Source of the DNA: Escherichia phage PHB10
Reading direction: 5' to 3' (one strand)
DNA length: 57,228 nt
Sequence record: MK524177.1
A program made the translations under genes and the position numbers. Positions 3,996 through 45,926 of this stretch are shown here, in pieces. Under the pieces are notes generated by a model. The model made no database searches and was not told the origin of the DNA. It saw only the letters and a list, made by a program, of their open reading frames with translations. Within the stretch, counting starts at the first letter, position 1; every line of letters starts with the position of its first letter.

Positions 3996-4312
3996 TCCGC
4001 CCTCTCTTTATGCATAATTTTTAGCGCAGCACTTTCCATCACCCGGATGTCCGAAAGCGCGGTTGCCTCGTCGTCGACGTTGTGCAAACGCATCACCCAG
4101 GGCAAAACGTTATAGTCGAGCCCGGACGCGCCCCCCATTCCCGTTCGCCATTGCGTACTGACAGTCTGAAACACCAGGAATGAAGTCCATACATCTGGCC
4201 AGACGTCGATGTATTGATCGTCGTAATCATCCGGCGTAAGCCCGTATGGTGCCAGGTCTGCCGCTGTGGGTTCAGGCGTATAGAACGCAGAGGCAACCGC
4301 TATCAGTTTTTT
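3992..4312 (-). CDS. GT-type -1 frameshift extension of the tail assembly chaperone
   Basis: Slippery AAAAAAC (minus strand, 4312..4306) just before the G stop; the -1 frame stays open to 3992 and its stop overlaps the tape measure start. Confidence 0.65.
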
Positions 4313-4614
4313 TCGCGCTGCCCCATCAGCTCGCGGTAGTAGGTTTCCGGGATGGCCTTCATCGCCGCCGGATAGTTTTCCAGCAGCACCGACAGGTTTT
4401 CCGCGTTGAATGCATCCGGAAGTGCCCAGCCAGCAATGATTTCCATCAGAAAATCAGTGGCGGTTTTACCTTCGAGTTTTTCGAGGTCAGCCAGTTCTTT
4501 AAGTGGCTTGTGGTTGAACGTGAACGTCAACACGCCATCCTCATCGCCAGCTCGGGGGATCGAGACATTGGCCTTGAATGTAGGTTTTGGCTGAAGGGAG
4601 AATTTGGTCGCCAT
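4303..4614 (-). CDS. tail assembly chaperone (G-like)
   Basis: 103 aa ORF directly upstream of the tape measure gene; ends at a slippery heptamer. Confidence 0.75.
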   Translation of the reverse strand: MATKFSLQPKPTFKANVSIPRAGDEDGVLTFTFNHKPLKELADLEKLEGKTATDFLMEIIAGWALPDAFNAENLSVLLENYPAAMKAIPETYYRELMGQREKN

Positions 4615-19951: not shown

Positions 19952-20151
19952 ATCCGGTTTCGCCAGCGGCTATCCGCGCGCGCTGGCGTATTTGAGGTTG
20001 GCAGGAATGCACTTACAGTCCAGGTCACGTAATCCGGATTAAGGCTGCGCTCTACTCGCACGCCGCGCGCTTTGTAACGCTTAACCAGTTCTTCGGCCTG
20101 TTCGGTGCTGCAGTCGGTATGGTGAAACCAAGAATATTTCATGCCCTTCAC
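19942..20151 (-). CDS. hypothetical nin-region protein
   Basis: 69 aa ORF overlapping the rusA start. Confidence 0.35.
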
Positions 20152-20750
20152 CCCGCAAAGCCAAGCAGCTGCGCAGCGACATTTTCGGCCTCATCACGAC
20201 TGCGGAATGAACGGGACAGGACCCAGCGCCAGAGGACATCGAGCGCAGCTTTATAGAGTTGCTGGAACTCGAGCTCGTCCATGTTGGCGAATGAGATGCT
20301 ACGAGGGTGCTTTTTGAGGGTGCCGTCAGGTAGCTGAATAGCATCAAAGTGCCCTGCCTCGACGATCACCCAGGAGCGGTAAGCATCGAAGGATTTGCAC
20401 AGGCTAATGCCATTCGTGACGCGCCGGTAAGCAACCTGCTCAAGATACTGCTCAGCAGCATCGATCAGCGCGCCCTCATTCCCGCCATACGAAGCCAGGA
20501 ACCTGGCGTAGCCGGTGATCAGCTTCCGCTCGTTGCTAGATATAGCCCCGCCGGTTGGTTCCCAGTATTCAAAACCGAGATTGAGAAGCGCGAAAAAGCG
20601 CCGATGAAACGCCGGGTTACGTACCCGCCTGAACTCGGCAACAAGAACATCGCCGAACCGGGTTTTGGATTGCAGAATATCGCTGGTCTCGGGCGTAGCC
20701 GGGATCAGTATTCCTGAGTGGTGTTTGATAAGTTGTAATTCTAGCGCCAT
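20148..20750 (-). CDS. nin-region phage protein (DUF1367-like), function unknown
   Basis: 200 aa ORF; family assignment from memory only. Confidence 0.45.
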   Translation of the reverse strand: MALELQLIKHHSGILIPATPETSDILQSKTRFGDVLVAEFRRVRNPAFHRRFFALLNLGFEYWEPTGGAISSNERKLITGYARFLASYGGNEGALIDAAEQYLEQVAYRRVTNGISLCKSFDAYRSWVIVEAGHFDAIQLPDGTLKKHPRSISFANMDELEFQQLYKAALDVLWRWVLSRSFRSRDEAENVAAQLLGFAG

Positions 20751-21944: not shown

Positions 21945-22901
21945 TCATGTATTTTCAGGACAAAGATGCCGGCAGAACCAGTCAACAACCACATTGATGA
22001 CCTCGGGTTGATACCAGTGATAATCACCATGTTCGGCGCCTTCGATAAGTACGTAGTCCGCTTTATTTCCTTCGTCCAAAAGGCCTTCGTAAAGCGTTGC
22101 GCTCTGCTTTGGTGATACTAATGTATCTTTAGTGCCATGCATTATCAGGAATGGAGGTTTGCGCCCTCTAATATGTCCTATGGGGCTTGCATTTATCGCT
22201 TTCTCAGGTGTAGAAGCGATGGATGCGCCTGGAAAGTTCCTGAAAGCAACACCATTAATTAGCAGTGATTCCGTGACCGCAGGAGACTGATGCACTTTTT
22301 GACGGTGATCAGGAAAACCATCACCTATGTTACGCAGGTCTGATATTCCGTAAAGCGTGGCCACAGCCTGCACATCAGCGGACTGGCTGAGAAAATCGCC
22401 GTGTTCGAATGATTTATCGCCATTTGTGGTACCCAGCATCTGAGCCAGCCATCCTCCAGCAGAATCGCCAAATACACCAATTCGTGAGGGGTCAATACCA
22501 TAATCGGGGGCATGTTGACGAAGGTATCTTACTGCTGCTTTAGCATCTACTATTGGTGCAGGGAAGGTATCCGGGATTGTCCTATATTCTGCCGCAGCAA
22601 CAACAAAGCCAGCCTCCGCCAGGGCCATACGCATTTCCATAAATTTGTTGTGCTCAGCCGTCATAAATCCTCCTCCAGGAAAATAGATGATGGCTGGTTT
22701 CAAAAAACTGGTACGAGGCACCAGAAAAGACATGTGTAAATGCCTGACCGAGCGAGTGCTTTTAACTGTCTCATAAACAACATCGCTGATGTTATCTATC
22801 GGGTTACGCGTCATAGCGACCTGAATAATTTCTGCTCCATGAACATAACCGGGAAGATTGTAATGATCAGAAGATACTGCGCCAGTTTGTTTAGAAATCA
22901 T
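21945..22901 (-). CDS. alpha/beta hydrolase (esterase/lipase-type)
   Basis: GDSAGG nucleophile elbow, HGTKD, oxyanion region FPGGGF. Confidence 0.8.
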   Translation of the reverse strand: MISKQTGAVSSDHYNLPGYVHGAEIIQVAMTRNPIDNISDVVYETVKSTRSVRHLHMSFLVPRTSFLKPAIIYFPGGGFMTAEHNKFMEMRMALAEAGFVVAAAEYRTIPDTFPAPIVDAKAAVRYLRQHAPDYGIDPSRIGVFGDSAGGWLAQMLGTTNGDKSFEHGDFLSQSADVQAVATLYGISDLRNIGDGFPDHRQKVHQSPAVTESLLINGVAFRNFPGASIASTPEKAINASPIGHIRGRKPPFLIMHGTKDTLVSPKQSATLYEGLLDEGNKADYVLIEGAEHGDYHWYQPEVINVVVDWFCRHLCPENT

Positions 22902-23090
22902 AAAAAGCTTCCATTGAAAACAGATCTCCGAAGAATCGAATCCTCTATAACTATATCATCCCGTACGAGTCTAGTGAGATCGGTTCTTTCCCTGTATAAC
23001 TAATATAAATATTCATTCTCAAGACTTATCCATGCAAGTACAGTATTTGTGACAAATCCTGGGAAGTGATGTTTTTTCATTCAGAAACAG

Positions 23091-23525
23091 TTACGTCATT
23101 GGATTGCTGTTATTTTTGTTATATTTCAACCTGTCTTCACGAAATCGATCCGCATTTTCGACGATCCAGGTCCATAGCGGAATCATACGAACAAGCAGTT
23201 CCATACCAGTATCAGACAGCTCGTATTCGACTCGTGGTGGAACTTCATTGAAATCATGGCGGATAACAAGGCCGTCCCGCTCAAGTTGTCGTAATGTGCG
23301 CGTCAGCATGCGCTGAGTCACTCCGTGCATACGCCTACCAATCTCAGCATGGCGTAGTCTTCCATACACGCCAAGAGTGTTGATAACACCCAATGACCAG
23401 CGACTTCCTGCATGGGTCAGCACTTCCCGCCGTAAGCCATCATCATCGTCTCTCAGCCCCTTACAAACATCCTGCGAATACTGAAGAATCTCGTCCCGAT
23501 CCATTTCACTGACTCCCGGTATCAT
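23091..23525 (-). CDS. HxlR-family winged-helix transcriptional regulator
   Basis: Motif WSLGVINTLGVYGRLRHAEIGRRMHGVTQRMLTRTLRQLERDGLV; divergent from the NmrA-like gene; start probably 23525. Confidence 0.75.
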   Translation of the reverse strand: MIPGVSEMDRDEILQYSQDVCKGLRDDDDGLRREVLTHAGSRWSLGVINTLGVYGRLRHAEIGRRMHGVTQRMLTRTLRQLERDGLVIRHDFNEVPPRVEYELSDTGMELLVRMIPLWTWIVENADRFREDRLKYNKNNSNPMT

Positions 23526-23594
23526 ACATGTACCTTCTTTTTTAGCCTGTTGTGAATTGCTAGAGTGGCGCAACAATTCATGTAAGGCCAGATT

Positions 23595-24545
23595 ATGAAC
23601 AAAATTGATCTTAACACTACGTCTGAAAATATCCTCGTGCTCGGTGCCGGTGAGCTGGGCCTCCCCGTTCTGCGAAATCTTGCCCTTCGGGCAAAAGATT
23701 TGAAGGGAACAAAAATCAGCGTGCTGTTGCGCGAAAGTACCTTAACTTCAGATGAACCTGGAAAAAAATTAGTTCTCAAGGAAATCAGAAACCTCGGTAT
23801 TAATATTGTCACAGGTGATCTCGTCATGAGTTCTGTCGACGATTTGGCCAGCCTCTTTGCGCAATTTGACACAGTCGTTGGCTGCACGGGGTACGCGGCT
23901 GGAATAAATACACCGATGAAACTGGCGCAGGCGGCTCTGCAGGCGCGGATTCCACGATATTTTCCATGGCAGTTTGGTGCCGATTTTGATGCCATCGGAC
24001 GCGGCAGTCCACAAGACATCTTCGACGCGCAGATTGACGTGCGTGATTTACTACGCAGCCAGCATGAAACCGAGTGGGTCATCATTTCGACCGGCATCTT
24101 CATGAGCTATTTGTTCGAACCAGACTTCGGTGTGGTCGATCTACAGAACGATACTGTTCACGCACTCGGCAGTATTGACAACACCATGACGCTGACAACA
24201 CCGGATGATATCGGGATGCTAACGGCAGCGATTGTATTTAACACTCCTCGCATTCGGAACGAAATTGTATATATCGCCGGTGATACACTGACCTACGCAG
24301 ATGTGGCAGATAAGCTGCAATCAGCGCTTGGCCGTCCTTTCAGCTGCACGGAATGGAGCGAACAACATCTGATGGATAAACTGGCGCTCAACCCGCAAGA
24401 CATGATGTCTAAGTATCGTGCCGTTTTTGCACAGGGGCGGGGAGTTGCTTGGGATAAAAAGCAGACATTCAATGAACGCCATAACATTCCGGTTACCGAT
24501 GTGGCAGCCTGGATTAATGCAAACCTGATCCCAGGCAGCTCATGA
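23595..24545 (+). CDS. NmrA-family NAD(P)-binding oxidoreductase
   Basis: N-terminal Rossmann motif VLGAGELG; typical HxlR/NmrA divergent pair. Confidence 0.75.
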   Translation: MNKIDLNTTSENILVLGAGELGLPVLRNLALRAKDLKGTKISVLLRESTLTSDEPGKKLVLKEIRNLGINIVTGDLVMSSVDDLASLFAQFDTVVGCTGYAAGINTPMKLAQAALQARIPRYFPWQFGADFDAIGRGSPQDIFDAQIDVRDLLRSQHETEWVIISTGIFMSYLFEPDFGVVDLQNDTVHALGSIDNTMTLTTPDDIGMLTAAIVFNTPRIRNEIVYIAGDTLTYADVADKLQSALGRPFSCTEWSEQHLMDKLALNPQDMMSKYRAVFAQGRGVAWDKKQTFNERHNIPVTDVAAWINANLIPGSS

Positions 24546-24652
24546 TAGACGTATTTAGGCTGCTGTAATAAATACCAGAGTCTTTCTCCTGCCTACCCGA
24601 ATAGGTGATGAGAAAGACTCTGTTCCCCCTGTTGGCACTGATAGTAAAGCGG

Positions 24653-25513
24653 TTAAGCTGTGTGAGCTGAAAACCGGCTCTCCGGTAAACCGGGGAATAC
24701 GGCTGATTTCGCTCTTAGCAGCGCTCCATCATGCCTTGACGGCACAGAAAGACCCACGCTGGCACTAGTACAATACAGCGTTGTGAATGCTTCTCCCGCG
24801 AGTGTCGGGCAAGTGCTCTGAATTCCTGGGGAGGGCAGGATACGATCCGTCGTTCCGTCCGGACGATAACGTACAACACGGCTTCCTCCCCATTCGGCAT
24901 TCCAGATATAGCCCATTGCGTCCACGCAGGAGCCGTCAGGCGCCCCCTTTCCCTCTGTTGCAGTGAACACACGCTGGTTATTCATAGTGGGATAATCACA
25001 GCACAATATACGGCCCTGCATCGAGTCACAGTAATACATCGTGCTGCCGTCCGGACTGAAGCAGATGCTGTTCGGGATGGACACCTCAGGCAGGGGTAGC
25101 GTTTCAATGCTGAGTGTCGCTGCATTTAGCCTGTGAAATTTTCCGATGACTTTCGCGGGGTACCCGTCATCCATGGTCCCGAAGACGAAATTACCCTCAC
25201 GGTCGCACCGACCATCCCCTGTCCGTGTTCCCGGCCCTCCCGGTGACCCCACTACCGGTGTAAAGATACCCGTATTCAGATCGCAGAAGGCGAATCTGGA
25301 CGCCAGCCCCATCAGTAAAACGTCAGAATTTTCAGTAAGTGCAAACGATCCGAGGCGCTCAGGCAGCGACCAGCGCATCACAACACCGGTATCTTCTTCA
25401 AGGGCAAGCAGCTCGCTGCCTTCAATGTCAGTCCAATAAATCCTGCGAGTCCTCTCGCACCAGATTGGGCACTCTCCAAGCAAATTTCTGGTATCAGCAG
25501 CCACTGAAAACAT
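24653..25513 (-). CDS. SMP-30/gluconolactonase/LRE-family protein
   Basis: Beta-propeller-like repeats (GECPIW, DxxG motifs); start MFSVAADT at 25513 with GGGAGA SD. Confidence 0.75.
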   Translation of the reverse strand: MFSVAADTRNLLGECPIWCERTRRIYWTDIEGSELLALEEDTGVVMRWSLPERLGSFALTENSDVLLMGLASRFAFCDLNTGIFTPVVGSPGGPGTRTGDGRCDREGNFVFGTMDDGYPAKVIGKFHRLNAATLSIETLPLPEVSIPNSICFSPDGSTMYYCDSMQGRILCCDYPTMNNQRVFTATEGKGAPDGSCVDAMGYIWNAEWGGSRVVRYRPDGTTDRILPSPGIQSTCPTLAGEAFTTLYCTSASVGLSVPSRHDGALLRAKSAVFPGLPESRFSAHTA

Positions 25514-25611
25514 GTTATTTCTCCCGCATATAAAAGTTTCGCATCGCCTGAACAATAGCTTACGGCCATCTGCACTATGGCAGAGCGCCGTAAGGAGCAT
25601 TCCCCACCCTG

Positions 25612-26085
25612 TCAGGGCAAAAAACGCGCTGAAAGTTTGTCACCAAAAAGCATGATGGCGAGTCCTGCCAGCATGACCAGCATGCCCCCCAGTTTGAGCA
25701 GCGAAACCGGTCGCCTAACAGCACCCAGCAGACCGAAATGGTCAATCATTTGCGACGAGAGTAACTGCCCAACGATTGCCAGCCCTAGCAGAGCTGAAAA
25801 ACCGATTTTCGGTGCCAGCACTACGTAGCTGAATAACGCACAGGCACCGATCAGACCGCCCGCCAGACTCCACGCAGGCTGCGAAGGAATAGCAGCGAGA
25901 GAGGTAAATAACCCTCCACGAAGCAGCGAGTAAATCCCGAGACTCAACGCCCCGGCCGTAAATGAGAAGAATGCGGCGGTAACCGGGTCCCCCCCGAGTC
26001 CTTTTGCAAGCTGACTGTTCAGGGTCGTCTGCAGAGTAATACCAAGACCCGCTGCAAAAGCTATTACGTAATAAATCGCGCTCAT
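25612..26085 (-). CDS. small DMT-superfamily membrane transporter, putative
   Basis: 157 aa, four to five hydrophobic helices. Confidence 0.65.
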   Translation of the reverse strand: MSAIYYVIAFAAGLGITLQTTLNSQLAKGLGGDPVTAAFFSFTAGALSLGIYSLLRGGLFTSLAAIPSQPAWSLAGGLIGACALFSYVVLAPKIGFSALLGLAIVGQLLSSQMIDHFGLLGAVRRPVSLLKLGGMLVMLAGLAIMLFGDKLSARFLP

Positions 26086-26099
26086 GCTGTTTTTCCCTG

Positions 26100-27497
26100 T
26101 CAGTTTGCCTGTACCAGCGGCAGAAATTTCTCCGCAAAGATGTCCGGCTCATACCCGGCGGCAGCAAAAAGGTGTTCGCGTGATTCATCGATGGCAGCAC
26201 GAAGACGCTCGCTGTCCACGCCCAGAACTTTACCGTTCTTCTTGACGATGCGCCCGCCAATCATAACGGTATCGATGTTGCTGCGTTCAGTTGCATGCAC
26301 CACCGTCCCGAAGGCATTCCCGTTCGGGTAGAGATTGAGATCAGCAGCATTAATCAGGATCAGGTCGGCCTGTTTTCCTGGCGTCAGGCTACCCACTTTA
26401 TCCTGTAGCCCGGCACAGGTCGCACCATCGACGGTCGCCGACTTCAGCAGTTGCGCTGCCGGGAGCGTTGTTATTGAATGCCCTGAATCACAGCAGTGCT
26501 GCTTATGCATACCCATTACTCGCTGCAGATAGAACGCCACGCGCATTTCCATAAACATATCTGTGCTGTAAGACGTTTCGTTATCCACGCTCAGGCCAGG
26601 ATTGATGCCATGGCGCTGTGCGGCCTCAATGGCAAACATCCCGCTTTCAATGCCATAGTGCGAATCTGAGCGCGGACAGACGTTCACCCGTACGCCGGCT
26701 TCACGCAGGATTTCCCAGCCCTCATCAGGTAGTGCGGTACAGTGGTTGAAGATATTGTCCGGGCCAAGCAGACCCTGCCGATGCAGAGATTCAAGCTCGG
26801 AGGCCATCTCAGCACCAAAGAATTCGGTCACGATCGGCAACCCCAGCCTGCGCGCTTCAGCCCATAATTCTGGCTCCAGCTGAGCCATAACCCCCAAAGT
26901 CACAAGACCCTCTGGGTTATCCCTGAAATACTTTTCCTGCAGACGCTGCCAGTTACCTGGCCAATGTGCACGATCCCATTCACCCGCAACCGGTGCGCCG
27001 GAAGCATGAATGGCGCGAATGCCGCTATCAAGCAGAGCCTCGACTGCAGCGTCGGAATGCGCTGCGGTACGGCTGTTATGCGAGTTATCGATCATCGTAG
27101 TGATACCCGCGTCAATCGCGCCCAGCGCCGTCAGCAGGTTGCCGACATAGATATCTTCAGGACGGTAATATTTAGCGAACGAAAAGTGCGTGGCGTTGCT
27201 GTAGTCGTCCAGACAGGTGGCGTTGGGGTTGATGCGGCGTAGCTGACCTTCCCAGGCGTGACGATGAGAATCAACCATCCCAGGCATGGCAATCATATTT
27301 TTGGCATCAATAACACGAGCACCTGGCGCGTCAAGGTTCTGACCAACGGCGGTAATGATTGAGCCGTTGATGAGAATGTCACCGCGCTCAATATTACCGA
27401 CGCTATCGTCCATACTCAGTATGGTTGCGCCGCGAATCAGCGTTACCGGCGGGTTTTCCGTCTGTTTCTTAACAATATTTCTGTTGTAATTGGTCAT
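26100..27497 (-). CDS. amidohydrolase-family metal-dependent hydrolase (deaminase-like)
   Basis: 465 aa with metal-binding motif MPGMVDSHRHAWEGQ and conserved downstream His/Asp residues. Confidence 0.8.
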   Translation of the reverse strand: MTNYNRNIVKKQTENPPVTLIRGATILSMDDSVGNIERGDILINGSIITAVGQNLDAPGARVIDAKNMIAMPGMVDSHRHAWEGQLRRINPNATCLDDYSNATHFSFAKYYRPEDIYVGNLLTALGAIDAGITTMIDNSHNSRTAAHSDAAVEALLDSGIRAIHASGAPVAGEWDRAHWPGNWQRLQEKYFRDNPEGLVTLGVMAQLEPELWAEARRLGLPIVTEFFGAEMASELESLHRQGLLGPDNIFNHCTALPDEGWEILREAGVRVNVCPRSDSHYGIESGMFAIEAAQRHGINPGLSVDNETSYSTDMFMEMRVAFYLQRVMGMHKQHCCDSGHSITTLPAAQLLKSATVDGATCAGLQDKVGSLTPGKQADLILINAADLNLYPNGNAFGTVVHATERSNIDTVMIGGRIVKKNGKVLGVDSERLRAAIDESREHLFAAAGYEPDIFAEKFLPLVQAN

Positions 27498-27639
27498 TGT
27501 AATCGTCTCTTTCAGATTAAGAAGGAAAACGATACGCCTCCCGATTAAGATGAAAAAGATGACTAACGTGTTTTCATAATTCAGAATTAACGAATAATAA
27601 TGGTTAACAACTTTACACGATATTCAGGAGAGCAGTCAG

Positions 27640-28527
27640 GTGGATCGCATTCAGGCTATGCAGGTTTTTTTAAGGGTGGCTGAAGCCGGAAGCTTTGTCA
27701 GGGCAGCGGAAACACTGTCCCTGCCTTCCTCTACTGTTACCAGCACCATCAAAAACTTGGAGAAATATCTGCAGGTGCGTCTGCTCAACCGGACCACAAG
27801 GAGGGTCAGCCTTACGTCTGAAGGTCTGCAATACCTGGCGCAATGCAGGGAAATCCTTGCCTTAATTGAACATACTGAAGCCAGTCTGGCTGATTCGAAC
27901 AAGCGCCCCCGGGGCCGCTTACGCGTTGATATGCCCGGCGGTATAGCCCATTTCATCGTTATGCCAAATCTGAAAGAATTCTACAGCCGGTATCCTGATA
28001 TTTACCTGATGATCGGTGTCAGTGACCGGCAAGTTGATCTGGTTCAGGAGGGTGTGGATTGCGTGATCAGAACCGGAGATTTGCTTAGCTCAACACTTGT
28101 TGCCCGTCCGCTTGGGCAGTTCCGCTGGATCACCTGCGCCTCTCCCGAATATCTCAGAAAGTATGGTATTCCACAGTCACCTCAGGATTTATCTCATCAC
28201 AGGGCTATTCATTATTTTTCAGGGCAAAACCGACGTACAGACGAATTGCGTTTTGTACATGGAACAGAAACGCTGTCTGTATCCGTCAGCGGGCAGGCAG
28301 CCGTCAATGAGACGGGACTCTATATAAAAATGTGCCTCGAAGGGTTCGGACTGGCGCAGCTTGCTGAAAACGTTGTAGCAGAACACCTGCAAAAAGGAAC
28401 ACTGGTTGAAGTCCTGGCCGACTGGCAGCCGTCGTCTGTTCCTGTCACTTTGCTTTATCCCCATCAGCGTTTTCTTTCACCCGCCGTACGCGCATTTGCA
28501 GACTGGGTAGATGAAATCTTTAGTTGA
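27640..28527 (+). CDS. LysR-family transcriptional regulator
   Basis: N-terminal HTH (MQVFLRVAEAGSFVRAAETLSLPSSTVTSTIKNLEKYL) and LysR substrate-binding domain. Confidence 0.85.
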   Translation: MDRIQAMQVFLRVAEAGSFVRAAETLSLPSSTVTSTIKNLEKYLQVRLLNRTTRRVSLTSEGLQYLAQCREILALIEHTEASLADSNKRPRGRLRVDMPGGIAHFIVMPNLKEFYSRYPDIYLMIGVSDRQVDLVQEGVDCVIRTGDLLSSTLVARPLGQFRWITCASPEYLRKYGIPQSPQDLSHHRAIHYFSGQNRRTDELRFVHGTETLSVSVSGQAAVNETGLYIKMCLEGFGLAQLAENVVAEHLQKGTLVEVLADWQPSSVPVTLLYPHQRFLSPAVRAFADWVDEIFS

Positions 28528-28725
28528 TATGTCTGTTACAGCCACCCGAGCACATTAAAAGTCAGCAGTATTCAGGATACCTGGCAGGACGGCAGGCTTT
28601 GCTTCGCGGATGCGTCCATTCCGGAACGGCGGCTTCACAGGTAAAGAGCTGTACCCAAAAATTCAATTCTCCGTTTTAAAAGTAACGCCTCCGGCTAAGA
28701 ACCCCAGCCGCATCCGGGGCCTCTT

Positions 28726-29619
28726 TTAACTGAAATGTCTGAGTAAAATATCTTCAAGGATGTGAAAAACGGTCCTGATGCGTTGCGGTACAAGGGTCTG
28801 ATAGGGCCGGTAAAGATAAAGCTGCCAGGTTTCCAGTTTTAGTTCCGGTAAAACATTCACCAGCCTGCCGTCTTCGAGATATTCCCTGCAGGCCAGATTA
28901 CTCGACTGGATCACTACTTTACCGGCTAATGCAGCCTGAATCTCAGACTGGGAGTCGGTAGTAATAAATTCAAGATGTCGTGGTACAAAAGTATCGACGC
29001 CATCGAGCATATATTCGAATACTTTGCCGGTATCAGGATTCAACAGGCCACTGAAAGGATAGCGCTGGCGCAGATCGTCGAAATTTTCCGGCGCACCCAG
29101 CCGCTCAATGAGCCCGGGAGATGCCATCAGCGCGTGATGAACAAGCGTAATGGGCCTGATAATAAAGTTCGGATTTGGCTCCCGCTCAATACGGATCCCC
29201 ATGTCAATGCGGTTCTGAACAGTATCCAGCTTCATCATGTCCAGCCGCCAGTCTATAAACAGCTCAGGATAAGGACGAAGCGCATTCAGAAGCTCATAGA
29301 GTACCTGTTCGTGCCCGGGAAAGCGAAACAGGGTGATCCTCACAATCCCCTTCATCTCATTGTCATCTCTGGCCGTTTGAAACAGGGCCTCTGAATCCTC
29401 AAGCAAACGAAGGGCCCCCGGCAGGAAGAGCTCACCAAAGCTGGTCAGCACAATAGATCGGGTATTCCGCTTAAAAAGTGGCTCGCCGAGCTGATTTTCC
29501 AGTTCAGCAATAGTGCGCGTCACCACTGAAGGAGAAATGGCCAGTCTGACCGCTGCTTCACGAAAATTCATCGTTTCTGCAGCGGCAACAAAAAATTTCA
29601 GCGCATCTAGTTTATTCAT
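28726..29619 (-). CDS. LysR-family transcriptional regulator
   Basis: HTH LDALKFFVAAAETMNFREAAVRLAISPSVVTRTIAELE; divergent from the AKR operon; start probably 29619. Confidence 0.85.
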   Translation of the reverse strand: MNKLDALKFFVAAAETMNFREAAVRLAISPSVVTRTIAELENQLGEPLFKRNTRSIVLTSFGELFLPGALRLLEDSEALFQTARDDNEMKGIVRITLFRFPGHEQVLYELLNALRPYPELFIDWRLDMMKLDTVQNRIDMGIRIEREPNPNFIIRPITLVHHALMASPGLIERLGAPENFDDLRQRYPFSGLLNPDTGKVFEYMLDGVDTFVPRHLEFITTDSQSEIQAALAGKVVIQSSNLACREYLEDGRLVNVLPELKLETWQLYLYRPYQTLVPQRIRTVFHILEDILLRHFS

Positions 29620-29736
29620 GATTGTTGTTTTTTTAGCAATTCTGACTTTCAAAATTAACAATTTTTATGCAACAAATCCAGCCATATACTTAACCGCTCT
29701 AAAACATCACTGAGTTAAGAAAAGTCAGGATTCACT

Positions 29737-30702
<966 letters not shown>

Positions 30703-30717
30703 AAATAAGAGATCGAA

Positions 30718-31233
30718 ATGAAAACAACTGTATTTGTTACCCATCCCAATATTCATCTGTCCCGTGTTAACTCGGCGCTGGCAAATAGTGCAGCTTCACT
30801 GCCCGATATTAATGTACGTTATCTGTATGACATGTATCCGGATGGTAAAATCGACGTGGCCGCTGAACAGGCTGCGCTGGAAAATACCGATCGTATTGTG
30901 CTGCAGTTCCCGATGCAGTGGTACAGCACGCCGCCACTTCTCAAGCAGTGGCTTGATGATGTACTGACCTACGGCTGGTCACATGGTGGCGAAACTCAGG
31001 CGCTGCATGGCAAGCAACTCATGCTGGCAGTTTCGCTCGGTGGTGCTGAGTCTGCGTATCAGCCTGATGGAGCAGCCGGTCATACGGTTAGCGAATATCT
31101 GCTGTCCTTTGAAACAATCTCCGGGTATCTGGGTATGCATTATCTCAAGCCTTTCATTACCGGCGGAAGTGCGACGATCACCGACGGGGAAATTGCGGCA
31201 CAGGCTGAACGCTACAAAACGGTATTAGTCTGA
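30718..31233 (+). CDS. flavodoxin-like NAD(P)H-dependent oxidoreductase
   Basis: 171 aa, flavodoxin-fold-like; 15 nt downstream of the AKR gene (operon). Confidence 0.65.
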   Translation: MKTTVFVTHPNIHLSRVNSALANSAASLPDINVRYLYDMYPDGKIDVAAEQAALENTDRIVLQFPMQWYSTPPLLKQWLDDVLTYGWSHGGETQALHGKQLMLAVSLGGAESAYQPDGAAGHTVSEYLLSFETISGYLGMHYLKPFITGGSATITDGEIAAQAERYKTVLV

Positions 31234-31481: not shown

Positions 31482-32168
31482 CTATGCCCTCCCATCAGCC
31501 TTCATTCGCTCATATTTGGCTTTCAAAAGCTCCGCTGGAGTTGGCCCTTTCGATGCCACTGGCGCTGCCAGCGCCCTACGAACAGGCGGAATTGGCTTCC
31601 CGGACAGCACTCGCTTCTCCCACATACCCAGAATCTCGCCAGCCTCGCGCTCGAGCTCTTTCTGACACAACTGGCCATCGGTTCCGCGGCGACGCAGTTC
31701 GAGGCAGATGTGGTAAAAAACCGGCTTTGGCCAGGGATACTGCTCGCTGCTCGGGTACCGGAACACCAGCTTGCGCCACTTCCAGTATTCAGCCATCACG
31801 TCAGCGGTGGTGATCCCCAGCACACAGCGCCCTTCCCTGCACCACTTGATGAACTGGCCTGGCGAAGGCAGGAATGGACGCTCCTGACGACGCACCATGC
31901 GCATTCCCGCTTCAACCTGCTCCAGAGTGGTGATCCCGTTTTCTTTGAACGCCAGCACCCACTGACGGCGAATCTCGTTCACGTCTTCCTGGCTGCGGTT
32001 TACCAGGCTTGCCGGAAACGCAGCCGCCAGCTGTACGAATAGCCCGTTGATAATCTGGGCCACCTGCTGCGTTTGCTCGCGCTCGGTGTACTGCTCAGGC
32101 AGGTTATGCGCCACACGGCGAGCCTGTTCCCGGTCAAAATTGCGAATGCTCTCGGCAAGATTTTTCAT
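31482..32168 (-). CDS. replication protein P (helicase loader)
   Basis: Strong similarity to lambda P as I recall it (NFDREQ.RR.A.N.PEQY, QVAQIINGxF, RRQWVLAF.ENGITT, RPFLPSPGQF). Confidence 0.85.
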   Translation of the reverse strand: MKNLAESIRNFDREQARRVAHNLPEQYTEREQTQQVAQIINGLFVQLAAAFPASLVNRSQEDVNEIRRQWVLAFKENGITTLEQVEAGMRMVRRQERPFLPSPGQFIKWCREGRCVLGITTADVMAEYWKWRKLVFRYPSSEQYPWPKPVFYHICLELRRRGTDGQLCQKELEREAGEILGMWEKRVLSGKPIPPVRRALAAPVASKGPTPAELLKAKYERMKADGRA

Positions 32169-33166: not shown

Positions 33167-33718
33167 TCACATTGCCCCCAACATGGTTGTGACCATCGCC
33201 AGCAGCGGCGCCGTAAGGTCCGGATCGATCCTGAACATTTCGAAAATCCCCTCGCCTAACTCCTTCAGTTTTTCCTTCTTCGGTGCATCGAGCATCAGAG
33301 CTTGCTTCGCCTCACTTACCTCTTTTTCCAGCCGGGCCATTCGGTAAGCAAACGAGTCGTTCTTTACGACACGGTCGCGGTATCGAAGCGGCAATACAGA
33401 CATGATCGCGGGCACCAGCTGTTCGACGTTCTTTCGGTACGATACGGAGTCTTCTTTGTTGTCGAGCCAGCGGAACAGCTTCACGTTCCAGACATCGGCC
33501 TGGCCTGAGAAATCCACGCCATCAAGTTGAAGTTCTTCCGCCGCTTCTTGGATTTGAAGCGCAACAGCTACGCGCCCTTCTGCCGCTGCCCACGCCCGGA
33601 CTGCAGAACAAATATCGCGATGATCAATATCCTGCTCTGCCGATTTGCTTTGATGACACGGGAATATCATTGGATTAGAGCAAGCTCTGCTACTCTGTTG
33701 AAATGAAACAGTTTGCAT
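33167..33718 (-). CDS. hypothetical regulatory protein in the cII position (YdaT-like?)
   Basis: 183 aa ORF between the cro-like gene and O. Confidence 0.35.
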   Translation of the reverse strand: MQTVSFQQSSRACSNPMIFPCHQSKSAEQDIDHRDICSAVRAWAAAEGRVAVALQIQEAAEELQLDGVDFSGQADVWNVKLFRWLDNKEDSVSYRKNVEQLVPAIMSVLPLRYRDRVVKNDSFAYRMARLEKEVSEAKQALMLDAPKKEKLKELGEGIFEMFRIDPDLTAPLLAMVTTMLGAM

Positions 33719-33720
33719 AG

Positions 33721-33948
33721 TTAAGGTTCCTGTTTAGGTAAACCGTCGGTGGGGTTTGGATAGAGATCGGGTCGTAACTCGTGGGGAGTTACTCCGGTCA
33801 TTTTAAAAATGGGAAAGATGTAGTTTGGAGGGACGATCCCATGGTCACGATTCTTCCAATGACTTACGGACATACTCGTAACACCTAGCGCGATGCTGAG
33901 CTTTCTGGCTGAGCCAGCAGCTTTAATTGCTTTATCGAGTGCGGACAT
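33721..33948 (-). CDS. Cro/YdaS-like HTH regulator
   Basis: 75 aa, HTH KLSIALGVTSMSVSHWK, ELRPD motif; divergent from the repressor; AGGAGAAG SD. Confidence 0.7.
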   Translation of the reverse strand: MSALDKAIKAAGSARKLSIALGVTSMSVSHWKNRDHGIVPPNYIFPIFKMTGVTPHELRPDLYPNPTDGLPKQEP

Positions 33949-33976
33949 GTGCTTCTCCTGATTATAGACAGCGCAA

Positions 33977-34042
33977 GTAAACCATAGATTTACATTATAT
34001 GCAAACCATAACTTTATTGCGTGTATAAACCAAGTATTTACA
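33977..34042. promoter_or_regulatory. operator region: three AAACCA-N4-TTTA repeats and divergent promoters
   Basis: Repeats at 33978, 34003, 34027 (24-25 bp spacing); TACAAT -10 hexamer at 34039-34044 placed for a leaderless repressor transcript. Confidence 0.45.
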
Positions 34043-34050
34043 ATGGCATT

Positions 34051-34425
34051 ATGAGAAAAGAAGAACCCAACCTCCTATTGGTGGACCGCCTAACTGAGAT
34101 CACAGATCGTGGCGTTACCAAAGCAGACATGGCACGAATAGCTGGAGTCACCCCTCAGGCCGTAAACGGCTGGTTCAAAAAAGGCGTGATCAGTAAGAAA
34201 TCGGCACTGGCTATAGCCGATGCTGTAGGCATTTCAGTCGCCTGGCTACTTGGTGAGGATGTTGGAGAGAAGGACGGCCTTAAGCCGGACGAGCAGCGCT
34301 TACTAGAACTCTACCGCCAATTGCCAGAAGAAGAGCAGCAGAACATGCTTCGTATCTTTGCGCTTCGCTTGAAGGAGTTGGATGAGCTGTATGAGAAGTA
34401 CATGAAAGGGCGCATAAAAAATTAA
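34051..34425 (+). CDS. prophage repressor (XRE-type HTH, no peptidase domain), probably leaderless
   Basis: HTH TKADMARIAGVTPQAVNGWFKKG plus coiled-coil C-terminus; no SD before ATG 34051 and a -10 hexamer 7 nt upstream. Confidence 0.65.
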   Translation: MRKEEPNLLLVDRLTEITDRGVTKADMARIAGVTPQAVNGWFKKGVISKKSALAIADAVGISVAWLLGEDVGEKDGLKPDEQRLLELYRQLPEEEQQNMLRIFALRLKELDELYEKYMKGRIKN

Positions 34426-34512
34426 TTAAGTGAATTGATGCTACGATTGTTGATGTGACGTTAATGACCCGTTTTCACTTAAGTTATCTAACCATACGTA
34501 CGTGGAAAAAAG

Positions 34513-34833
34513 ATGGACGAAGAAAATAAAGATAATGCTGAAAACCTAGGCGAAAGCGGTATCACAAGAGCGCTTTCAATTCTTGGAGAAGAATTTGGTA
34601 ATTATTTTCTAGAATTGGAATCTAAGCACGGGGAGATGGTTTGTCCTTTATGCAGAGGTACCATGTGGGGTATCCCTCCAAGATTCGACTCTGCCGAACA
34701 CCCTGCTATCGTGACTCTCCCTTTACCTAACTCTGCCGGGCGTGGTATCTGGGCTTATCCTCTCATCTGCTCTGGATGCGGTTTCATTGCAACGTTTTCT
34801 GCATTTGAAGTTTCAAAGAAGATTCGGGGATAA
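34513..34833 (+). CDS. small zinc-ribbon protein (CPLC...CSGC), first gene of repressor-linked module
   Basis: 106 aa, four Cys in two CxxC pairs, acidic N-terminus; AT-rich; 87 nt downstream of the repressor. Confidence 0.5.
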   Translation: MDEENKDNAENLGESGITRALSILGEEFGNYFLELESKHGEMVCPLCRGTMWGIPPRFDSAEHPAIVTLPLPNSAGRGIWAYPLICSGCGFIATFSAFEVSKKIRG

Positions 34834-34839
34834 ATTCTC

Positions 34840-35217
34840 ATGGCAGCCGTGTGCTTAGACTCCAACTCGATAATGAGGCTAACGGTTAGCACTTCAGAGA
34901 TTTTTGAGGCATTGCCGACAATCGAAAATCGCATCGGGGACACGCCTTACACACCCGACGAAGCTACCGTTATGATCATTACAACTAATGTGTCTCGTTC
35001 AGAAAATTGTACTGGTTTGCTGATACTATCTGTAATATTAGTATGTTTAATTGGTGTTATAGTAAATGTATTAGGAGGTAAAGTAATGCACTACATCCCC
35101 TTGTACATCGCACTTGCACCTGTATTTTATTGGGTGCTTAAAATCGCTTACGCATTTTTTGTTGTTAAGTTTCATAAACTTCAAACTAGTTCTTCATTTT
35201 TCAAGCAGGAAGACTAA
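34840..35217 (+). CDS. small membrane protein (soluble N-terminal domain plus two TM helices), second gene of module
   Basis: 125 aa; 6-nt gap after the previous gene; hydrophobic segments LLILSVILVCLIGVIVNVLGG and IPLYIALAPVFYWVLKIAYAFFVV. Confidence 0.5.
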   Translation: MAAVCLDSNSIMRLTVSTSEIFEALPTIENRIGDTPYTPDEATVMIITTNVSRSENCTGLLILSVILVCLIGVIVNVLGGKVMHYIPLYIALAPVFYWVLKIAYAFFVVKFHKLQTSSSFFKQED

Positions 35218-35639
35218 TGCCTAACGATAATCTTAAAAACACAGCTAAAAATGGTCTTCCACTAGTCATAGCAAGCGTGTTGTGTGGATACGCAACGAAC
35301 GCAATTCCTGTTCTCTTCCCTGCAGGTGAAACAAGAGAATGGGCTTATCGCTCGATTCCTTTCTTGTCTATCATTATTTTATTCATTATCAAGACCTTGA
35401 AAGATTTTGGCGGTATGTCTTTTAGTAATCTTGTGTTCACAATCTGCGCGAGTTCAGAAAAAAAACGACTTCTAGCGATGATAAATGACAGCAATCTGAG
35501 CCAAGCGACAAGAGATGATGCTAAAAAGCGGTATGACGAAATTGGCCGCCAAGAACTTGAGCTTGGATCTCGGTTTCTGAAGTATGTTTCACAATGGTCG
35601 GTTATAAATAAATCCCCAACCCCCCCACCTACTGATTAA
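35217..35639 (+). CDS. small membrane protein (two TM helices plus charged C-terminal domain), third gene of module
   Basis: 140 aa; start overlaps the previous stop (TAATG); followed by a terminator. Confidence 0.5.
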   Translation: MPNDNLKNTAKNGLPLVIASVLCGYATNAIPVLFPAGETREWAYRSIPFLSIIILFIIKTLKDFGGMSFSNLVFTICASSEKKRLLAMINDSNLSQATRDDAKKRYDEIGRQELELGSRFLKYVSQWSVINKSPTPPPTD

Positions 35640-35651
35640 CTATTGTCTACA

Positions 35652-35677
35652 ACCCGGCCATCGCGTCGGGTTTTTTA
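35652..35677 (+). terminator. intrinsic terminator ending the repressor-module operon
   Basis: 7-bp stem (35652-58/35665-71) with 6-nt loop followed by T6. Confidence 0.6.
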
Positions 35678-36112
35678 TATCCCAATCAACTCGACACTCC
35701 TCTAAACTCCAGCCCCGTACTCATTATGCCCGAGCTTAGCATCATTTTTTTGCCTGTTATACCTCACCCTTCTTATAAAAATCCCCACATAAACCCCTGC
35801 TTTACAATTTTTGTAATCCTTTGATTGACACAGTTATAAACCAGTGATTTAATCGAGCTTACCAAGACGCACTACGAACCACCAAGGCAGGACGCCCACG
35901 AAGTAGCCGCCGACGGCATACGAATAGTCGGATGAGGTGGAGAGATTAACGCGCATCAGGTGTAAATGTTCCGCTGGCCGGCGATAAGGCAAACGAGGGT
36001 GAGAATGATTGATTTCGCACGCAAACCAGGACGGCAGCAGGCTGTAAAGCTGAACTTCCTCGAAGTGATTCTTCGCCGCTTATGCTATCTGCTGGCGCAA
36101 AAGGGGAATCCA

Positions 36113-36277
36113 GATGTGTAGCTCAACGAAATGCGGGTACTGCGGCAAGCCGGTTGAACCGAAGGAAGTAGTTAAATGTACCCTTCTCTATCGCAACGGC
36201 GCCCAGCTGGCGCGCAAAGAAAAAGAATACTGCTCTGAACGTTGTGCTTCGTACGACCAGATGGCCCACGAGGCATA
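36113..36277 (+). CDS. small zinc-ribbon protein upstream of the recE-like gene (YdaE-like position), putative
   Basis: 54 aa MCSSTKCGYCGKPVEP...YCSERCASYDQMAHEA with CxxC and CxxxC; SD AGGGG; shorter than the ORF-track cutoff. Confidence 0.4.
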
Positions 36278-36418
36278 ACGTAAAAGCCGCGCAAGGCGGC
36301 CCGTACGTCCGGTGCTCCCGACCAAAGTTACACCGGAAAACTACTTAAAAAACCAAAGTTCACCCAATGGGCGCTATCTCTGGCCCGGGGATCTTACATC
36401 CAAAAAAGAGGATCTCAC

Positions 36419-43738: not shown

Positions 43739-44037
43739 TTTACGAGACAAATATTTTCCTAATGGCAATCCAGATTTGACTATACAGGATTGGTTAATAA
43801 TAGCCAAACCTATTTTATTGGCCTTCCGGAAGGCTAAAATAAAATTTGCTTAATCTTTCAGCACGTGCCTTAATGGTTTGGCTGATTCATTGCGATGATG
43901 AATCTAACTTTTCCAAAAGCCGTTCTCATAACTAGGTGTTATCTCTGATATCCCTCCTTTTGAGTCCATACATATACCAGCATACGTTTCTTATCATGAG
44001 CTTGCTTGTCAGTTTGAAATGTTCAAACGGAGTTTGT

Positions 44038-44256
44038 ATGTCATCTAAAATCATAGGTCTTGTTAAGTGGTTTAACGAAGATAAGGGGTTTGGCTTTATC
44101 TCCCCACTTGATGGAAGTAAAGATGTTCTTGTTCACACTTCTTCCCTGCGGGGAGAAACATTTAATACTCTTTTTGAAGGACAAAAAGTCAAATTCGCTA
44201 TCATAGCTGGAACTAAAGGTCCAATCGCTGCCAATGTAACACTTTGCGATAGATAA
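44038..44256 (+). CDS. cold-shock-domain protein (CspA family)
   Basis: [35 protein letters not shown]; start 44038 with GGAG SD. Confidence 0.85.
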
Positions 44257-44497
44257 TTTTAGATGGTTTACTTAAGCCAGCATGACTTTATCAGTGAAAG
44301 GTGATGTTCGGTTACTCACATCATTACAACAGGCCAGCATATTTACTTACCATCAAGTTTGCTGACCGATGTGATGAAATGCAGGACTGCTGCATGAACA
44401 GTCTCAAAGCAGAAGCTAACTGCTTATAAAATACTAAAGTGCGTAAGAGGTTAGGCAGCCTCCAAAAGCATCACTTCTTATTTTTTAATAATTTTTT

Positions 44498-45550: not shown

Positions 45551-45926
45551 ACATCGTTATTTCAGCCTTCACCATCTCAAAATGCTGCGATCGTGAAAAC
45601 TGCGAAAGAAAATCATGAGGCACATCAGTAAATATTGTATCATTTGCTAAGCATTGCTGTTACATTCGGTTTAATGATGAATCCTCCTAAGCGGCAGGGC
45701 TAATTAACCTGATGATTTGTATATCAAGCGGCTCATCGTGAATTTCTGAAGCAGCGAGTCACGAGTGGTTAGGTCAATGACTCACCGGGAGGCACCCGGC
45801 ATCATATCCGTAAGCCCCTGTATAATTGCAGGGGCTTATTTACATTACAAAAGCATAGTCTTAGACATATTACTGTTAATACTCATAGCCGATAATTAGG
45901 CTCGAATGAATAGACCGTTTAAAGAA

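Follow-up and report, generated by a model that had tools for sequence, protein, structure and literature searches.

Escherichia phage PHB10 carries a repressor-linked three-gene cassette within its immunity region: a candidate lysogen-expressed anti-phage module

The 57,228-bp record of Escherichia phage PHB10 (the window, i.e., the whole stretch of DNA that was analysed) carries a cassette of three tightly packed open reading frames (ORFs) directly downstream of a plus-strand repressor gene. The proteins encoded at 34051-35639 are identical to QBJ00774-QBJ00777, which were deposited as a 'regulator' (QBJ00774.1) and three entries of 'hypothetical protein'. An initial interpretation made from the letters alone (the sequence-only reading) had proposed an operon of a zinc-ribbon protein and two small membrane proteins in the position that rexAB occupies in lambda. 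It located the three ORFs correctly, along with the 6-nt gap between ORF1 and ORF2 and the TAATG stop/start overlap that joins ORF2 to ORF3:

34513..34833, plus strand: ORF1, 106 amino acids (aa), an acidic, cytoplasmic zinc-ribbon protein (isoelectric point, pI, 4.9)
34840..35217, plus strand: ORF2, 125 aa, a predicted inner-membrane protein with a 59-aa acidic N-terminal head, a transmembrane (TM) hairpin, and a short tail
35217..35639, plus strand: ORF3, 140 aa, a predicted inner-membrane protein with a TM hairpin, then a charged helical tail of 79 aa that is probably cytoplasmic (protein pI, 9.2)

Pairwise comparison with the copy in an Enterobacter ludwigii prophage (L001 in the set of compared relatives, L001-L043) yielded ratios of nonsynonymous to synonymous substitution rates (dN/dS) of 0.235 for ORF1, 0.238 for ORF2, and 0.046 for ORF3, and judged by these values the three ORFs are real genes under purifying selection. 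The block is AT-rich, as had been noticed at first sight: the GC content of the cassette is 41.3%, versus 52.5% and 53.5% for the phage genes that border it. At every locus tested, it lies ∼3 to 11 points (median, ∼8) below that of the adjacent phage DNA. The cassette is an accessory ('moron') unit in the immunity region of a Rac-like temperate phage, in which it is framed by the following features:

33721..33948, minus strand: cro-like gene of the YdaS family (Pfam YdaS_toxin, E value 2.1e-13), divergent from the repressor
33949..34050: divergent promoter/operator region with two operator-like repeats, 33979-33992 (AAACCATAGATTTA) and 34003-34016 (AAACCATAACTTTA), of direct repeat family D1
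34051..34425, plus strand: repressor of 124 aa with a RacR/DicA-type helix-turn-helix (HTH) and without an S24 domain (Pfam HTH_3, E value 1.5e-6; phrog_8/phrog_4, transcriptional regulator/repressor)
34426..34512, plus strand: leader of 87 nt between the repressor and ORF1, holding a 9-bp inverted repeat
35651..35680, plus strand: intrinsic terminator (8-bp stem at 35651-35672 with 5 GC pairs, and a T-run)
35825..35853, plus strand: PL/OL-like site (TTGACA-17 nt-TTTAAT), read from the sequence and overlapped by a third operator-like motif at 35838-35851

The repressor is the probable first gene of the cassette operon. No terminator-like or promoter-like site was detected in a scan of the 87-nt leader, so co-transcription with the repressor is the simplest reading; the promoter scan demanded an A at position 2 of the -10 hexamer and missed the PL/OL-like site. 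Downstream, the terminator that had been read after ORF3 was found as a stem at 35651-35672 with its T-run, and a GC-rich hairpin followed by a T-run closes the last cassette gene in 17/17 distinct variants examined. The PL/OL-like site lies ∼175 to 210 nt past the terminator stem and forms the outer boundary of the immunity region. The operator-like motif AAACCANNRMTTTA has 3 occurrences in 57 kb against 0.05 expected, a statistic that is indicative only, as this degenerate pattern was composed after the sites were seen. Two of the copies are located in the cro/repressor intergenic region and one at 35838-35851, the latter agreeing with the first at 12 of 14 positions. As far as these motifs allow it to be read, the layout is OR - repressor - cassette - terminator - OL/PL, as in lambda cI-rexA-rexB. 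The proposed rexAB position is supported at the regulatory level by operator-like motifs flanking the unit and by the PL/OL-like site.

The sequence-only reading had also pointed to a perfect 9-bp inverted repeat in the leader (34426-34434 / 34475-34483). The repeat is present, but it is at chance level and not conserved, and we do not regard it as a feature. A second perfect 9-bp repeat lies 100 nt away, folding of the leader RNA does not stand out from that of shuffled sequences (z = -0.32), and the left arm is already changed in the closest relative (L001), and on these grounds a regulatory hairpin or operator at this place was rejected. The leaders of the relatives measure 49 to 125 nt.

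To define the distribution of the cassette, word-based searches were run over 5.8 billion clusters, from which related clusters were recovered for ORF1 (3), ORF2 (1), and ORF3 (11). Fetched contigs and an IMG/VR scan provided 25 further loci with an ORF3 homologue, i.e., 26 including the window. Hidden Markov model (HMM) searches placed ORF1, ORF2, and ORF3 in the same order in all 26 loci, with the L006 copy broken by frameshifts; the three ORFs do form one unit, as supposed. Among aligned diverged copies, the lowest identities are 46% (ORF1), 29% (ORF2), and 46% (ORF3). Among the named hosts of the cassette are E. coli, Klebsiella aerogenes, Enterobacter bugandensis, and E. ludwigii. It occurs in 5 of 5,426 complete E. 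coli genomes, at ∼65% DNA identity and annotated as hypothetical in all cases, in 0/72,556 plasmids, and in 0/100,044 species-representative genomes (one per species). A DNA search of a phage collection and a megablast of E. coli genomes returned no cassette match.

Recurrence of the cassette next to repressors had been suggested as a check, and in related prophages it does follow the repressor immediately and in the same orientation, with one exception. At every locus with enough upstream sequence, the gene before ORF1 is a plus-strand repressor divergent from a cro-like gene, except in L023, where a 132-aa ORF is immediately upstream; the sister locus L025, whose cassette is near-identical, has an S24 repressor at that place. 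The repressors are of at least five types, including RacR/DicA-like HTH proteins with differing N-terminal halves and several (at least three) mutually unrelated S24 CI types that also have an HTH. Loci L008 and L009 are of lambda type, with Cro (PF09048) divergent from CI (S24), followed by the cassette and the N peptide. The cassette was also found with YdaT, lambda-CII, and CP76-type regulators. Comparison of the PHB10 repressor (34051-34425) with its counterparts in L001, L013, L014, and L021 shows that these proteins are mosaic: the C-terminal halves (EKDGLKPDEQRLLELYRQLPEEEQQNMLRIFA.RLKELDELYEKYMKGRIK) are near-identical, and the N-terminal HTH halves differ. The whole-gene synonymous divergence (dS) of the repressor versus L001 is saturated. 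This pattern points to a recombination joint within the repressor gene, by which the C-terminal half would stay linked to the cassette.

ORF1 had been read as a zinc ribbon from its CPLC and CSGC motifs. Both are found, and when 43 family members are aligned, no column is invariant except those of their cysteines (Cys44, Cys47, Cys86, and Cys89). Across diverged copies of the cassette, ORF1 conserves these four Cys residues together with a GRG.W..P motif. The Pfam profile Zn_Ribbon_TF / TFIIB (PF08271) scored 21.3 bits on residues 30-53, under its 29-bit gathering cut-off. An AlphaFold2 (AF2) model built from the 43-sequence alignment reached a predicted local distance difference test (pLDDT) score of 90.6 and a predicted template modeling (pTM) score of 0.77, and it was used in place of a 6-sequence run (pLDDT 59), which was discarded. 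In the predicted fold, a pair of N-terminal helices leads into a small beta sheet, which the two CxxC knuckles close off. Foldseek searches with this model revealed no significant structural neighbour; the weak end of the list contains generic C4 zinc ribbons (TFIIB/TFIIS/Pol I A12.2, NrdR, and the MqsA N-domain). Like these, ORF1 would have beta hairpins bridged by two CxxC knuckles, whereas its 38-residue insert between the knuckles and its two N-terminal helices are without counterpart in them.

The ORF1 family extends well beyond the three-gene cassette. A profile search of 1.84 billion representative proteins recovered 54 clusters at E values up to 1e-3, all except two of ∼80 to 120 aa. 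ORF1 itself matches phrog_4293 (E value 2.4e-5), a partial match via its C-terminal 25 residues, and five tested relatives from four profile-search subfamilies and the Yersinia phage copy match the same entry with E values of 7e-5 to 7e-8. Since ORF1 and the tested relatives all match it, phrog_4293 is the existing catalogue entry for the ORF1 superfamily; in PHROGs its function is blank, and neither repressor adjacency nor variable partners are recorded there. ORF2 and ORF3 have no PHROG match. In 7/7 informative subfamily contexts (the window type, L027/28, L031, L032, L033-35, L036-37, and L043; L029 and L030 are too short to judge), the ORF1-family gene lies one to two genes after a prophage repressor on the same strand. 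These contexts span phages of Enterobacteriaceae, Yersinia, and Pseudomonas.

The genes that accompany ORF1 vary among these contexts. The commonest partner is a single protein of 155 to 170 aa, in which an acidic head precedes one TM segment and a coiled coil forms the C terminus; it is carried by L027, L031, L033, L036, and Pseudomonas phage Aurca01; an extra lipoprotein-like gene is located ahead in L029 and L033. In Yersinia phage vB_YenM_30.14, the order is cI - ORF1-like - 103 aa - 124 aa - terminator - N, and both partners are without a TM segment. In Aurca01 (L043; PP179334.1), the ORF1-family gene lies directly after CI at ∼3995-4305, where the record leaves it unannotated, and its stop codon runs into the start of the partner gene, which is annotated and encodes a TM and coiled-coil protein of 170 aa. 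These gene contexts make ORF1 the constant member of a wider family that is linked to repressors and has interchangeable partners, namely two 2-TM proteins, one TM and coiled-coil protein, or two soluble proteins. Profile-profile alignment with hhalign and motif comparison did not establish homology of the variant partners to ORF2 or ORF3. That the ORF2 head and the heads of the 1-TM partners are homologous could not be established either, as only a short ENxxGDIxY stretch aligns in L031 (E value of 0.16 among 3,001 ORFs) and the hhalign alignments were not meaningful.

As first read, ORF2 and ORF3 each have two TM segments, which a hydropathy scan placed at residues 60-78 and 88-106 of ORF2 and at residues 16-34 and 43-61 of ORF3. 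Conservation in ORF2 includes an invariant P-x-(I/V)-E-N-x-x-G-(D/E) motif in the head and an invariant YIPLY..L.P..YW..KI in the second TM segment, and the hairpin of ORF3 holds an invariant CGYAT..P..P.G...WAY. The loops between the TM segments are just 8 to 9 residues long in both proteins, and the 79-aa tail of ORF3 contains 12 Lys/Arg and 10 Asp/Glu residues. The short loops and the 12 basic residues of the tail fit a membrane complex that faces the cytoplasm. Two further ideas on these proteins were dropped. The conserved Cys5 of ORF2 (MAAVC) is replaced by Ser or Phe in L021, L023, and L026, which excludes it as a lipidation or metal site, and neither protein is a diverged SieB, with hhalign probabilities against K-12 SieB of 2.4% (ORF3 family) and 0.2% (ORF2).

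None of the three proteins had been recognised as a member of a described family, and the database searches bear this out: Pfam, NCBIfam, PADLOC, the Protein Data Bank (PDB), and Foldseek (ORF1 model) returned no significant match. More specifically, ORF2 and ORF3 had no match in Pfam, in which ORF1 retrieved only the subthreshold zinc ribbon; NCBIfam yielded nothing meaningful, and PDB sequence searches with all three profiles gave nothing significant.

The position downstream of the repressor is itself variable. Two metagenomic lambda-like phages whose CI proteins are 92% identical carry the three-gene cassette in one case and a two-gene version in the other, with ORF1 proteins that are 40% identical, and the DNA similarity of the pair stops at the CI stop codon. 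Similarly, sister E. coli prophages that share the repressor family and the KilR/YdaE/RecE flank lack the cassette and have unrelated cargo in the slot, and in K-12 Rac the slot contains ydaG, ydaF, and sieB. By these comparisons, the repressor-cassette slot is a turnover site at which the cassette is horizontally exchanged; low GC content and slot replacement are signs of horizontal cargo and rapid turnover. The cargo of the sister prophages consists of a 467-aa protein in L040 (3927-5330) and L042 (3864-5264), and of a 117-aa protein (4107-4460) with a convergent FumD/DUF2767-like gene in L041. It has no Pfam or PADLOC match, and we regard these genes as further candidates for lysogen-expressed functions.

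Outside the cassette and its regulatory frame, the following genes were assigned in the neighbourhood, which is an immunity and early region of the Rac type:

31482..32168, minus strand: candidate P-like replication gene, by synteny and size match with L001
32165..33115, minus strand: candidate O-like replication gene, on the same grounds
33167..33718, minus strand: YdaT-type gene (Pfam)
36114..36278: YdaE-like ORF, then a 1057-aa RecE-like gene and a RecT-like gene, named from the L001 equivalents

The L001 equivalents of the candidate O and P genes match Pfam Phage_rep_O and Phage_lambda_P. Beyond the terminator, a non-coding block at 35825-35992 that contains the PL/OL-like site is ∼92% identical to L001. 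A 47-aa minus-strand ORF within it (35849..35992) was considered as a small convergent gene such as those in L002 and L041 and was rejected: substitutions are spread over the three codon positions (2/2/3 versus L001 and 2/2/2 versus L012), and this even spread identifies the stretch as a conserved non-coding block. No other ORF was found in the gap at 35680-36110; K-12 Rac has the kilS small RNA (sRNA) near the equivalent position. Small convergent genes of ∼68 to 70 aa do lie past the cassette terminator in L002 (7164-7373), L041 (4658-4867), L003 (6473-6685), L007 (2719-2925), and L027 (3753-3959). The one in L002 matches DUF2767, that in L041 is annotated FumD, the others are without Pfam match, and the window has no such gene.

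Two more places in these genomes attracted our attention. The early region in the window is interrupted by ∼9.3 kb of ordinary bacterial genes (21945-31233), flanked by a DUF1367 gene (20148..20750) on one side and the candidate P-like gene on the other and encoding a BD-FAE esterase, NmrA, an SMP-30 gluconolactonase, a YdcZ exporter, an amidohydrolase, two LysR regulators, an aldo-keto reductase, and a flavodoxin-like protein. This block is either an unusually large metabolic cargo or an assembly/excision chimera in the deposited genome. At the equivalent of window position ∼31.3 kb (post-P), L001 has an AAA_15/AAA_21 ATPase with an RloB-like protein and a Polbeta nucleotidyltransferase pair (1058-2822), and E. 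coli TUM9803 has small genes and DinI only, so that the post-P site resembles a second hotspot for cargo in this group of phages. In the window, the Rfam matches that exceeded the gathering score were a cspA thermoregulator leader (43911-44310), two STnc100 sRNAs (17258-17463 and 45642-45843), and a tRNA (17807-17880).

We propose that the cassette is a lysogen-expressed anti-phage module, with a probability of roughly 0.5. By analogy with rexAB and bstA, for which this has been reported, the cassette is likely made in lysogens from the repressor promoter; during lysogeny, the promoter of cI ranks with the most active ones of a prophage (PMC8585504). Position and architecture tip the balance in favour of an anti-phage role. 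That the module works as a sensor coupled to a membrane effector is a guess from the architecture. The cassette would be transcribed with the repressor from the maintenance promoter, and hence made in lysogens, and transcription would halt at the cassette's own terminator, just ahead of the PL/OL-like site. ORF1, which is constant while its partners change and may on that ground be a sensor or adaptor, would be the cytoplasmic sensing or regulating subunit. ORF2 and ORF3 would build the inner-membrane effector, with the ORF2 head and the ORF3 tail facing the cytoplasm. Upon infection by another phage, ORF1 would act on the ORF2/ORF3 complex, which would then compromise the membrane or otherwise halt infection, following the logic of RexA/RexB with unrelated proteins (PMC12894663). 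Such a membrane-anchored complex, switched on by ORF1, is the most parsimonious model. If the module is anti-phage, it is probably Rex-like; overall, this specific mechanism is less likely than not. A broader proposal, which we advance tentatively and at somewhat less than even odds, is that the ORF1 family (phrog_4293) represents a sensor/adaptor with a new fold in an undescribed repressor-linked class of prophage immune systems with swappable effectors, and that the form in the window is a new membrane-acting abortive infection system, parallel to RexAB but unrelated to it.

Several observations weigh against an anti-phage module. The cassette was seen only in prophages and never in a defence island, and co-localisation statistics are inapplicable. 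The alternative cargo in the slot of the sister prophages adds no direct defence association. PADLOC (PADLOC-DB 2.0.0, dated 2023) contains no family for ORF1-3, and the variant cassettes and their partners gave nothing below an E value of 0.005. Literature searches by topic and accession, which covered few subscription-journal papers, found no account of the cassette or of the ORF1 family. At the protein level, Pfam and structure searches identified no nucleic-acid-binding or enzymatic feature in ORF1, which is acidic (pI 4.9), and nothing indicates pore formation by ORF2/ORF3, whose TM segments and topology derive from a hydropathy script and charge counts and not from a dedicated predictor.

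The main rival to an abortive module of the Rex kind is superinfection exclusion at the entry step, in which ORF2/ORF3 would block DNA injection as T4 Imm and P22 SieA do, ORF1 would be an accessory or stabiliser, and the cell would survive. We consider it unlikely. The cassette does encode two small inner-membrane proteins beside a repressor, their best-conserved residues are in the TM hairpins and short loops, and P22 SieA is described as an inner-membrane exclusion protein (PMC10461980). Moreover, the ∼65- to 80-aa coiled coil of the common 1-TM partner is probably periplasmic, as Lys/Arg residues lie N-terminal of its TM segment, and this location would suit interference with ejection. In the window, however, the inter-TM loops have only 8 to 9 residues and the larger domains are all predicted to be cytoplasmic. 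The ORF1 relative of the Yersinia phage pairs with two TM-free proteins, indicating that an ORF1-type component needs no membrane partner. To our knowledge, no single-protein injection blocker comes with a dedicated, highly conserved cytoplasmic zinc protein. A toxin-antitoxin or addiction function, with ORF2 and/or ORF3 as membrane toxins and ORF1 as antitoxin or autoregulator, would stabilise the prophage and make any anti-phage effect secondary. A conserved first gene followed by swappable ones resembles antitoxin/toxin mix-and-match, the genes are small and translationally coupled, and the zinc-binding N-domain of MqsA is in the weak ORF1 Foldseek list, though not significantly (template modeling score of ∼0.24; E value of ∼1). 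Nevertheless, this function is quite unlikely, given that no toxin or antitoxin model of Pfam, NCBIfam, or PADLOC matches any component, that ORF1 has no recognisable DNA-binding domain, and that the promoter-like site expected for an autoregulated operon was not detected just upstream of ORF1. Typical small membrane toxins are also smaller and less elaborate than ORF2/ORF3.

The remaining alternatives take the cassette away from invading phages. In a phage-unrelated lysogenic conversion, the membrane complex would alter host physiology (e.g., envelope stress, transport, or tolerance to colicins or antibiotics). Prophage-expressed morons often bear host-fitness functions (PMC7067206), PHB10 also transports non-phage cargo in the form of the 9.3-kb metabolic block, and the cassette displays no sequence sign of phage recognition. 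We nonetheless deem conversion very unlikely. The link to the repressor slot is strict over at least five repressor types and over Escherichia, Enterobacter, Klebsiella, Yersinia, and Pseudomonas, the cassette was never found outside prophages, and close relatives hold alternative versions in the slot, as is more readily expected of a locus engaged in an arms race than of one with a housekeeping benefit. Lastly, a membrane-anchored module could serve the phage's own lysis-lysogeny control by tuning the stability of the repressor or a CII-type protein, or induction, e.g., via membrane proteases. The cassette lies within the immunity region and probably shares a transcript with the repressor, and RacR-type repressors, which have no S24 self-cleavage domain, need another induction route. 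Such a role is highly improbable in view of the distribution: the same cassette is found behind S24 CI and RacR-type repressors and with YdaT, lambda-CII, and CP76-type regulators, so it cannot be tailored to one of them, and sister prophages of the same repressor family are entirely without it, so it is dispensable for the switch.

In lambdoid phages, the slot between the repressor and the early-left promoter is a classic home of lysogen-expressed exclusion genes (such as rexAB, bstA, and sieB), and few of its occupants have been characterised. With only three genes and a native terminator in 1.2 kb, the cassette is a compact test case; it includes a conserved small zinc protein whose confidently predicted fold resembles nothing solved, and the related phages that pair an ORF1-type core with different partners are natural swap experiments. 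If the module is anti-phage, it would bring a new protein family into membrane-acting abortive infection and a second, unrelated system in which to study the activation of a membrane effector by a cytoplasmic sensor, which for RexAB is still an open problem after 60 years (PMC8585504). If it is not, repressor adjacency predicts defence less well than commonly assumed.

Among known systems, lambda RexA/RexB is similar in organisation. Both units lie downstream of the repressor in the same orientation, inside the immunity region, with a terminator before OL/PL (PMC8585504), both combine a soluble cytoplasmic component with one or more small inner-membrane components (PMC12894663), and both have the character of AT-rich morons. 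No Rex family was among the Pfam matches at E values up to 1, and the PADLOC Rex model did not match. The cassette differs from RexAB in having three genes, not two. RexA is a protein of ∼279 aa and RexB a single 4-TM protein, whereas the cassette has two 2-TM proteins. RexA is a DNA-binding protein (PMC12894663), and the soluble protein of the cassette is a 106-aa zinc ribbon. The mechanism summarised for RexAB is a loss of membrane potential triggered by the sensor, with abortive infection, and RexA has been overexpressed in P. putida (PMC12894663); nothing here points to an ion channel or to triggering in the cassette. The sequence-only reading had placed sieB nearby in Rac-like phages; in K-12 Rac, sieB indeed lies in the slot, filling the racR-kilR interval that the cassette fills in PHB10. 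SieB, a protein of superinfection exclusion or abortive infection in Rac, P22, and lambda, has N-terminal hydrophobic segments and then a charged helical C-terminal part, as seen in ORF3. The Pfam SieB model does not match any of ORF1-3, and sieB in Rac is a single gene on the strand opposite to racR, whereas the cassette comprises three genes on the same strand as the repressor. The same slot is occupied in the Salmonella prophage BTP1 by the abortive infection gene bstA, which is highly expressed in lysogeny, and BstA homologues are kept at repressor-adjacent positions in many prophages (PMC8585504). BstA is reported to localise to phage DNA replication sites (PMC8585504). It is a single protein with a DNA-based self-immunity element (aba), as opposed to the three proteins of the cassette, and ORF1-3 gave no PADLOC match, a negative that extends to BstA only if PADLOC has a model for it. 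Unrelated to the described members in sequence and predicted fold, as far as our comparisons reach, the PHB10 cassette is by kind another repressor-linked prophage moron with a soluble-plus-membrane architecture.

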